From Escherichia coli (GTDB taxonomy: Bacteria > Pseudomonadota > Gammaproteobacteria > Enterobacterales > Enterobacteriaceae): a DNA stretch of 64,000 nt. How positions within the stretch are numbered: the first letter of the stretch is position 1; each line of letters opens with the position of its first letter. Under the pieces are notes generated by a model. It was not told the origin of the DNA and made no database searches. It saw only the letters and a list, made by a program, of their open reading frames with translations. The DNA is taken from assembly GCF_003334355.1 (NCBI RefSeq), contig NZ_QOWP01000004.1; one strand, given 5' to 3'. The translations under genes were made by a program, and so were the position numbers. This document shows positions 38,412 to 41,117 of the stretch, in pieces.

Positions 38412-39110
38412 TCAGAACACCAGGTGTTCTGCGCGCACAATCAAAGACATACCCGAATTCAGCTGGACGCGGACGCCGTCTTTGGTGATTTCTAATACGG
38501 TGGCATCCATCGCGTTTTGACCCGCTTTCACCTTAAGGGCTTGTCCAACAGTCAGAGCTGAAATGTCAGAAACCGGGGTGTGCTGTTCTTCGCGAGGTGC
38601 TTTTACTGTTTTTGGCGCTTTCTCTACCGGCTTTTGCGCACGAGGTTTACGTTCAGCGCCTTCTTTGCGGCGTGGCGTGGTCGGACGTGGCTTGCGTTCG
38701 CGGCGCGGTGCGTCTTCTTTCTCACCAGCAGCTGCGGCAGCTTCGCGTTTTTTCGCTTGCTGTTCAGCACGCTGTGCCTGAACACGCGCTTTCGCTTCTT
38801 CAAGCTGCTTGCGAGCATGCTCTACATGTTGCTCGTCCAGCTCACCGCATGGGTTGCCGTCAAGATCGACACGCGTTGCGCCGGGTTTAACACCGTAAAG
38901 ATAACGCCAGCTCGAAGTGTAGAGACGTAAAGCGGATCGTAATTGCGTTTTGCTCAGGTTCATTTCCCCGGCAACACGATCGACCAAATCCTGAAAAATA
39001 CCGATTTTCAGCGGACGCGCTTCACCTTCCGCACTGAAACAGTGGGGAAAACGTTCGGCCAGAAACGCGATTACTTCTTTACTGCTATTCAACTTAGGTT
39101 GATTTTCCAT
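38412..39110 (-). CDS. proQ: RNA chaperone ProQ
   Basis: 232 aa; FinO-like N-domain, basic linker, C-terminal domain; 19 nt upstream of prc. Confidence 0.95.
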
Positions 39111-39206
39111 GAAATTTCCTGATTACAACGGACGTAGCCAACAAGCGCAGGCATGAACAGGCGTCATTATAATGACGCTACCAGTAAATGCTACGTTATC
39201 CGTTGA

Positions 39207-39704
39207 TTATCCTGCGACGCTCGCAAAGAATTTTTTGTAATCCGTCGTTGCAAGCACTTTTTCAAGCTGTGCCACAAGCTGACGTAAGCCTTGCTCGTCC
39301 TCGTCTGTAAAGCGACCGAAGACGGTACTATCGATGTCAAGAACACCAATAATCTGATTTTTCACCACCAGCGGCAGAACAATTTCAGAATTACTCGCCG
39401 CATCACAGGCAATATGCCCGTCAAACGCGTGAACATCCTCGATACGCTGCACTTGATTGCGGGCAACCGCAGTGCCGCACACCCCGCGCCCGACGGGTAT
39501 CCGGACACAGGCAATTTTGCCCTGAAATGGTCCGAGTACCAGTGTATCGTCCTCAAGCAAATAAAAACCTGCCCAGTTTACGTCAGTGAGACGCTCGTAT
39601 AACAACGCACTGGTGTTCGCAAGCGTTGCCAGAAAACTGGTTTCTCCCGCCATCAGCGCGTTAAAGTCGCGATTTAAATCCGCGTAAAATTCTGTTTTGT
39701 TCAT
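39207..39704 (-). CDS. msrC: Free methionine-(R)-sulfoxide reductase MsrC (GAF domain)
   Basis: ATG 39702-39704 gives 165 aa (MNKTEFYADLNRDF...). Confidence 0.9.
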   Translation of the reverse strand: MNKTEFYADLNRDFNALMAGETSFLATLANTSALLYERLTDVNWAGFYLLEDDTLVLGPFQGKIACVRIPVGRGVCGTAVARNQVQRIEDVHAFDGHIACDAASNSEIVLPLVVKNQIIGVLDIDSTVFGRFTDEDEQGLRQLVAQLEKVLATTDYKKFFASVAG

Positions 39705-39833
39705 TATATAATCACTTGTTTGTCTTACCTGGAACTGCCAGCCTATTAAAATAAGCATTAAATGCGTTAATGCTCAAGATCATTCCCATCATGGGTTAAG
39801 ATTAATGTTAATTCTTATTACATTTGGCACGTC

Positions 39834-41117
39834 ATGGCTCTTAACACACCACAAATTACGCCGACAAAAAAGATAACAGTGAGGGCAATCGGCGAGGAAC
39901 TGCCGCGTGGTGATTACCAACGTTGCCCGCAATGTGACATGCTGTTTAGCCTGCCCGAGATAAATTCTCATCAGAGTGCCTATTGTCCGCGCTGTCAGGC
40001 AAAAATTCGCGACGGGCGCGACTGGTCGCTAACGCGCCTGGCGGCAATGGCTTTCACCATGCTGTTGCTGATGCCGTTTGCCTGGGGCGAACCGCTGTTG
40101 CATATCTGGCTGTTAGGTATTCGTATCGACGCCAACGTCATGCAAGGCATCTGGCAAATGACCAAACAGGGCGATACGATAACGGGGGCGATGGTCTTTT
40201 TCTGCGTTATTGGTGCCCCCCTCATTCTGGTGTCCTCCATAGCATATTTATGGTTTGGTAACCGACTGGGAATGAATTTACGTCCGGTACTGCTGATGCT
40301 TGAGCGACTTAAAGAGTGGGTAATGCTGGATATCTACCTGGTCGGCATTGGCGTTGCTTCTATAAAGGTACAGGATTATGCCCATATCCAGGCGGGTGTC
40401 GGCTTGTTCTCTTTTGTGGCGTTGGTGATTTTAACGACGGTGACGTTGTCACATCTTAATGTCGAGGAGCTGTGGGAGCGATTTTATCCGCAGCGCCCCG
40501 CTACGCGTAGGGACGAGAAACTTCGTGTCTGTCTTGGGTGCCATTTTACCGGCTATCCTGATCAGCGTGGTCGCTGCCCGCGTTGCCATATCCCGCTACG
40601 CCTGCGTCGCCGTCATAGTTTGCAAAAATGCTGGGCGGCGCTGTTAGCGTCAATCGTTTTGTTGTTACCTGCCAACCTGTTGCCTATTTCTATCATTTAT
40701 CTGAACGGAGGACGGCAGGAAGATACAATTCTTTCCGGAATTATGTCGCTGGCAAGTAGCAACATTGCGGTTGCGGGAATCGTGTTTATCGCCAGTATTC
40801 TGGTACCGTTTACTAAAGTGATCGTCATGTTCACTTTACTGTTGAGCATTCATTTTAAATGCCAGCAAGGTTTACGCACACGCATTCTGTTACTGCGGAT
40901 GGTGACCTGGATTGGTCGCTGGTCGATGCTCGACCTGTTTGTCATATCTTTAACCATGTCGCTGATTAATCGCGATCAGATCCTCGCTTTTACTATGGGA
41001 CCGGCTGCGTTTTATTTTGGCGCAGCCGTAATTTTGACTATTCTTGCTGTGGAATGGCTGGACAGCCGCTTACTTTGGGATGCACATGAGTCAGGAAACG
41101 CCCGCTTCGACAACTGA
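39834..41117 (+). CDS. letA: Lipophilic envelope-spanning tunnel protein LetA (PqiA-like membrane protein, YebS)
   Basis: 427 aa; two paired Cys-x2-Cys zinc-ribbon-like motifs and polytopic segments. Confidence 0.92.

Follow-up and report, generated by a model that had tools for sequence, protein, structure and literature searches.

The letA and letB genes of Escherichia coli share 32 nt of coding sequence, and this overlap is real, conserved, already published and of an ordinary kind. The reading that we favour, with moderate confidence, is that the overlap is a by-product that has been tolerated, that letB translation depends mainly on independent initiation, and that ribosomes arriving from letA account for at most a minor share of it. 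What is new here amounts to modest additions and to no new phenomenon, namely a letB start anchored to a Trp-Asp motif of LetA, a drifting letA stop and a 16-nt duplication in Pectobacterium.

The overlapping genes and their products

The stretch of E. coli DNA analysed here (64,000 nt, hereafter the window) carries letA (yebS) at 39834..41117 and letB (yebT) at 41086..43719, both on the plus strand and both present in the list of open reading frames and in RefSeq. The former encodes a PqiA-family inner-membrane protein of 427 aa, the latter a seven-MCE-domain tunnel protein of 877 aa. LetA is a two-module member of its family and matches chain A of PDB entry 9n8w over residues 1-427; the Pfam family PF04403 was matched on all close LetA homologues. 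LetB matches chain B of the same entry (877 aa) from residue 1, and MCE matches recur along its length; with its seven MCE domains and N-terminal transmembrane helix it identifies the pair as the LetAB (YebST) lipid-transport operon. Residue 35 of LetB (41188-41190) is Gly in the window strain and Ser in the 9n8w sequence. The stoichiometry of LetA to LetB in the complex is 1:6 (PMC13017536), and 9n8w has one LetA chain and six LetB chains per entry. According to published work, the first ~25 residues of LetA tolerate both mutation and truncation. The DNA around the junction belongs to the E. coli chromosome, and a comparison of 801 nt with strain ATCC 8739 gave 100% identity.

The shared segment (41086..41117, plus strand) encodes LetA His418-Asn427 and the stop codon in one frame and LetB Met1-Thr10 with part of Glu11 in the other, that is, 11 letA codons including the stop and letB codons 1-10 plus two bases of codon 11. 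Direct reading of the sequence places the letB ATG at 41086-41088 on the plus strand; the letA stop TGA (41115..41117, plus strand) lies 30 nt 3' of the letB AUG. The next stop codon in the letA frame is a TAA at 41127-41129. The letB frame is +1 relative to letA, with a start-to-start distance of 1252 nt. The two are real coding sequences sharing nucleotides in different frames of the same strand; the proteins of both have solved structures, and the start and stop positions are conserved. A preliminary description of this DNA had reported a 32-nt overlap, which sequence reading and RefSeq annotation bear out, and had placed the letB ATG (41086) within the last 11 codons of letA (stop at 41115-41117), which is likewise correct. 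RefSeq annotates the identical 32-nt overlap in the three genomes inspected, the junction DNA was found in 5425 of 5426 complete E. coli genomes, and a 32-bp letA/letB overlap had already been stated in print by Santarossa et al.

The window strain carries a minority allele in this segment, with A at 41112 where most E. coli have G; the change gives Asn rather than Asp at LetA 427 and leaves the LetB protein unaltered. Identity of 99% or more to the window strain over 41056-41147 is found in only 96 of the 5425 genomes. The most divergent of the 5425 across this 92-nt stretch is a rare variant in E. coli O157:H7 TR01 (L084), in which GGGAT becomes GGAAT at the equivalent of 41079, replacing LetA Asp416 by Asn and altering the Shine-Dalgarno (SD)-like motif, and ACG becomes ATG at the equivalent of 41099, replacing LetB Thr5 by Met and creating an additional in-frame ATG.

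Independent initiation at letB in vitro

One line of evidence for our reading comes from INRI-seq, in which retapamulin-trapped initiating ribosomes are recorded in a cell-free system (Hör et al., NAR 2022, PMC9825163). The letB RNA in that experiment was synthetic, 183 nt long and with only 30 nt upstream of the start, and therefore lacked the letA start. The letB peak nevertheless reached 29.8-69.1 CPM (mean 49.0) against 6.3-7.9 CPM (mean 7.3) for letA, a ratio of ~6.7. In the RNA pool letB was 9-fold rarer (58.7 versus 541.3 CPM), and initiation per transcript differs by ~62-fold (0.83 versus 0.014) in this one in vitro dataset; letA gave the weakest signal of the four pqi/let genes despite having the most abundant RNA. 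These data show that in vitro, in one dataset and on a short RNA, the letB start region recruits ribosomes by itself without letA translation, and suggest that letB can initiate translation on its own. In vivo Ribo-RET has a peak at neither letA nor letB because their expression is too low. Entries for yebS and yebT are absent from the supplements of Mori et al. 2021, PMC9624429 and the TRAINSPOTTER paper (PMC13245402), and a full-text literature search for yebT together with ribosome profiling returned nothing useful.

The only SD-like element available to letB is GGGA at 41077-41080, 5 nt upstream of the ATG. It lies within the LetA Trp415-Asp416 codons TGGGAT (41076..41081, plus strand), the tryptophan of which is near-invariant in a 45-sequence family alignment. 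Its duplex with the 16S 3' end is worth -4.0 kcal/mol, a value equalled by 17% of random window positions; the letA start (39834) has almost no SD at all (-1.5 kcal/mol). Initiation at letB would make use of this weak GGGA, supplied by the invariant Trp415-Asp416 codons, with the AUG following 5 nt on.

The RNA around the junction shows no significant structure, its minimum free energy being -24.6 kcal/mol against -26.4 +/- 3.2 kcal/mol in shuffled sequences (z = +0.58), and the letB start region is more accessible than its surroundings (unpaired 0.62 versus a background of 0.42 +/- 0.11). The consensus fold of 22 sequences reaches -7.3 kcal/mol with 0 compensatory or covarying pairs. A stable conserved structure sequestering the SD or the AUG, which coupling by RNA unfolding relies on, is thus not present at this junction. 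A 7-bp hairpin that includes the letA UGA appears in the E. coli fold; it was dropped because it is not conserved in Pantoea, Erwinia and Yersinia. An Rfam search of 39000-44500 returned no match at E <= 1. A consensus scan for an internal promoter of a letB-only transcript found three promoter-like sites where 2.6 +/- 1.6 are expected, none of them close upstream of letB; within the limits of such a scan, a transcript of this kind is unsupported.

A terminator-like hairpin lies within letA at 41002-41028 (plus strand), ~60 nt before the letB start, with 10 pairs, 7 of them G-C, and with TAATTTTGAC directly after it. Terminator-like sites number 7 in 39500-41300, compared with 1.9 +/- 1.6 in shuffled sequences. 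The stem has a mismatch in the common E. coli allele (M10, O157), and the hairpin is therefore probably a by-product of Ala/Gly codons.

Comparative anatomy of the junction

An alignment of 45 diverse PqiA-family proteins served to retrieve 80 loci from contigs representing one genome per species. Across Enterobacterales and Pasteurellaceae the letB ATG is fixed 7 nt past the codon for LetA Trp415; the sequence reads tgggatgcacATG in enteric bacteria, and in Pasteurellaceae it is tgggaaatatATG or tggaaaatttATG. An overlap of exactly 32 nt is shared by 29 other enterobacterial species sampled, from the genera Escherichia, Citrobacter, Enterobacter, Kluyvera, Pluralibacter, Siccibacter, Pantoea, Erwinia, Yersinia, Rahnella, Serratia, Hafnia and Rosenbergiella. 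The position of the letA stop is kept in these 29 species, and the identity of the codon varies among TGA, TAA and TAG.

Outside this group the long overlaps drift between 17 and 50 nt: 26 nt in Providencia, 29 nt in Mixta, Acerihabitans and Mangrovibacter, 41 nt in Edwardsiella, 50 nt in Brenneria and 17-35 nt in Pasteurellaceae, with Haemophilus, where the reading frames were read directly, at 17 nt. In Mangrovibacter an alternative ATG with a slightly better heuristic score would give an overlap of 14 nt. All of the long overlaps are 2 modulo 3, and the frame relationship between letA and letB is therefore fixed. The let-like pairs of Vibrio overlap by 0 or 4 nt. Junctions of the pqiA-pqiB type are mostly at -8, -4 or 0, values that are indicative only, start codons in the distant pqi-type loci having been picked by a heuristic that combines SD score and codon type. 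The PqiA/MCE family as a whole has very tight gene junctions.

In two species of Pectobacterium the overlap has been removed by a 16-nt tandem duplication that includes the Trp-Asp codons (ACTGATGTGGGATAAC / ACTGATGTGGAATAAC; loci L027, 5203-5234, and L032, 5221-5252). Through the duplication the letA frame is shifted and closes at a TAA that precedes the letB ATG by 2 nt, and the 10 nt leading up to this ATG are again those of the native sequence. Brenneria (L026), the sister genus of Pectobacterium, has a single copy and the 50-nt overlap. Pectobacterium has thus naturally refactored the overlap much as experimenters did.

Some of the loci depart from the usual gene content. In Haemophilus paraphrohaemolyticus the letA-like gene (L042, 3986-5260) has no MCE gene downstream and is followed by a convergent unrelated reading frame; H. 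sputorum (L044) apparently also has an orphan PqiA-family letA-like gene with no downstream MCE gene. The MCE gene that follows a let-type letA is shorter in Mixta sp. (L019; ~545-560 aa versus ~877 aa) and in Providencia vermicola (L054; ~775-780 aa versus ~877 aa), which could reflect fewer MCE domains or truncation.

What the shared DNA encodes

Cryo-EM density is missing for LetA 419-427 and LetB 1-13 (PMC13017536), and for this reason the two tails specified by the overlap are probably flexible. The part of LetA past the Trp-Asp motif ranges in length from 1 to ~20 residues among family members, a spread that speaks against a critical role for the tail. Among 30 enterobacterial sequences, entropy within the overlap is 0.32-0.39 bit in all three codon phases, and no fast-evolving 'wobble' position was found there; third positions in the flanks reach 1.06 bit in letA-only and 1.31 bit in letB-only sequence. 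The absence of a wobble class is the expected signature of dual coding. The overlap also contains a near-invariant 11-mer, CAGGAAACGCC (41092..41102, plus strand), in the region of LetB Gln3-Pro6 and LetA Gly421-Ala423, where entropy in the same 30 sequences is 0 at +6..+12 and at most 0.6 bit to +16. Candidate causes for the invariance of CAGGAAACGCC are dual coding with its protein constraint and a constraint on the initiation region.

Is translation of letB coupled to that of letA?

Does an overlap of this kind mean that letB depends on ribosomes that have just translated letA? The preliminary description had held that it implies coupled translation, possibly for stoichiometric assembly. 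Its anatomical part stands: ribosomes ending letA cross the letB start and terminate 30 nt past the AUG, and physical interplay between them and that start is therefore guaranteed. The step from overlap to coupling is only partly supported, given that letB initiates in vitro without letA translation, that no structure masks its start, and that a distance of -32 nt lies outside the stop-start window for reinitiation, which extends from about -8 to +10 nt (Huber et al. 2023, PMC10666635). The suggested purpose is doubtful as well: in a LetA1:LetB6 complex, one-for-one reinitiation would yield the wrong ratio.

Several published observations bear on the same question. Huber et al. 2023 (PMC10666635) found reinitiation nearly abolished at a spacing of ~20 nt, in distance tests in which stops were moved upstream of the start (positive spacing), whereas the letA stop lies downstream. 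The same authors attribute long overlaps to stop-codon loss, 'typically ... without translational coupling', and a 2025 review gives the share of overlapping pairs with less than 30 bp in common as >80%. The wild-type reference in the mutational scan of Santarossa et al. was a plasmid on which the two genes had been refactored so that their reading frames no longer overlap.

In the three-part reading that we favour, letB would be translated mainly by ribosomes that initiate independently at its accessible start region, and would be initiated more often than letA, as a LetA1:LetB6 complex requires. Ribosomes finishing letA would supply a minor share at most, either because they hold the region open or because they now and then move back 30 nt and reinitiate. 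The overlap itself would be an evolutionary by-product, the letA stop having shifted in a frame relationship that is unable to collapse to ATGA or TGATG, and it would be tolerated because it constrains only two floppy tails. Two observations pull against this reading. The conservation of the 32-nt length and of the 11-mer over many genera could reflect selection on the arrangement, and the tight junctions of the PqiA/MCE family may indicate that some coupling is ancestral and still operating.

The alternative that survives best, which we regard as unlikely but as deserving serious attention, is that most letB translation in vivo is carried out by ribosomes that have just left letA, and that the overlap is kept by selection. 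Such ribosomes could reinitiate after sliding 30 nt back from the UGA, or could raise the local ribosome supply and keep the start open. A weak SD (-4.0 kcal/mol) is usual for coupled downstream genes, and the products are subunits of one complex, a class enriched in tightly spaced pairs (PMC10666635); the distance of 30 nt between stop and start is, however, beyond the range of efficient reinitiation, and long overlaps are regarded as typically uncoupled in that same work. The junction is tight throughout the family and both start and stop positions are kept in 29 other species, yet Pectobacterium has naturally lost the overlap, albeit with a stop that still lies just 2 nt before the AUG, and the refactored operon of Santarossa et al. 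served as wild type. A ratio of 1:6 is not obtainable by one-for-one reinitiation, masking RNA structure is absent, and letB initiation in vitro is both independent of letA and stronger.

Interplay of the opposite sign is improbable in our estimate. Ribosomes elongating or pausing at the end of letA would here cover the letB SD and AUG and limit letB initiation, and low letA translation would then permit a high ratio of LetB to LetA. The geometry suits this, in that the letB start region (~41066-41101) is contained wholly in letA, whose stop follows about one ribosome footprint further on, as does the very weak letA start region (SD of -1.5 kcal/mol; the lowest INRI-seq signal on the most abundant RNA). 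If letA translation is sparse, however, the effect would be negligible either way.

We give equally little credence to the overlap as a selected gating device, in which ribosomes on letA would set the number of LetB starts per LetA, whether by delivery or by occlusion. The letB start would then have been kept one ribosome-length 5' of the letA stop, with the Trp-Asp codons as its anchor, six LetB protomers would be made beside each membrane-inserted LetA, and CAGGAAACGCC would be part of the signal.

Comparison with known gene pairs

The closest comparison is offered by pqiA-pqiB of E. coli, which consists of the same two families in the same order. PqiA, like LetA, has a short tail after the conserved Trp-Asp, and in both pairs the final part of the upstream gene contains the ribosome-binding site of the downstream one. 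Unlike in letA-letB, the pqiA stop is found 4 nt before the pqiB ATG in K-12, with no overlap (L002, 2255-2262), and pqiB has a strong GAGGAG SD in place of the weak GGGA of letB. In INRI-seq the isolated pqiB start gave a mean of 7.3 CPM (one replicate 0) on 89 CPM of RNA, pqiA 64.6 CPM on 75 CPM of RNA, and pqiC 241. Peak per transcript unit is accordingly 0.08 for pqiB versus 0.86 for pqiA, the opposite of the pattern in letB (0.83) versus letA (0.014). This fits a short-spaced pqiA-pqiB pair that relies on coupling and a long-overlap letA-letB pair that does not, in a single comparison from one dataset with one value per gene.

The termination-reinitiation pairs with ATGA or TGATG junctions (Huber et al. 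2019, 2023) resemble letA-letB in being co-directional within one operon, in encoding subunits of one complex and in having the downstream start region inside the upstream reading frame. Their junctions are at -4 or -1 nt (up to -8), in contrast to -32 nt in letA-letB. By phase, letA-letB belongs with the phase-1 overlaps (-8, -11, ... -32 ...; Huber et al. 2023, PMC10666635), as do its relatives with 17, 20, 23, 26, 29, 32, 35, 41 and 50 nt. Overlaps of this phase are proposed to originate when the upstream stop is lost or shifted (Huber et al. 2023, PMC10666635), and to be retained afterwards because -2 and -5 junctions are impossible and shortening to -4 or -1 cannot occur (PMC10666635). 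Compared with phase-1 overlaps generally, the letA-letB overlap is unusually stable, with 32 nt in 29 other species, and the position of its downstream start is tied to a motif conserved in the upstream protein.

In practice, little follows from the overlap. Mutations in the final 10 letA codons are mutations of LetB too, which is why the published scan used a refactored operon, and deletions in letA can take out the letB start. A yebS deletion of the standard Keio design, if it leaves only ~21 nt of the 3' end, would take the letB ATG with it, and letA-deletion phenotypes would then in part be letB phenotypes. The pair also makes a clean natural test case for coupling by long overlaps, because the required output is 1:6 and not 1:1.

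Choice of the letB start

Long overlaps annotated in bacterial genomes often go back to mis-called starts, and E. coli does have a second ATG 6 nt upstream of the letB start; a true start elsewhere, which would make the overlap absent or different, is nonetheless extremely improbable in view of the sequence downstream of 41086, the conservation of this ATG and its ribosome peak. No in-frame ATG, GTG or TTG occurs between 41086 and the essential transmembrane helix of LetB, and the start therefore cannot be further downstream. The upstream ATG (41080..41082, plus strand) would give a protein beginning MHMSQ and an overlap of 38 nt. It is not conserved, being lost wherever the Asp416 codon is GAC (Enterobacter cloacae, Kluyvera, Pluralibacter, Pseudocitrobacter and others), and no SD-like motif is found at a suitable distance from it. 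Table S3 of the INRI-seq study lists no alternative initiation site for b1834, and the ATG at 41080 is probably not the main letB start. A TTG at 41044 was rejected as well, an in-frame stop cutting it off in Yersinia, Rahnella, Serratia and Hafnia. The ATG at 41086, unlike the ATG at 41080 and the TTG at 41044, is conserved across two bacterial orders. In the INRI-seq data the ribosome peak lies 12-18 nt past the annotated yebT start (1917510) in 5 of 5 replicates, and this start is 1252 nt after that of yebS, the same spacing as in the window.
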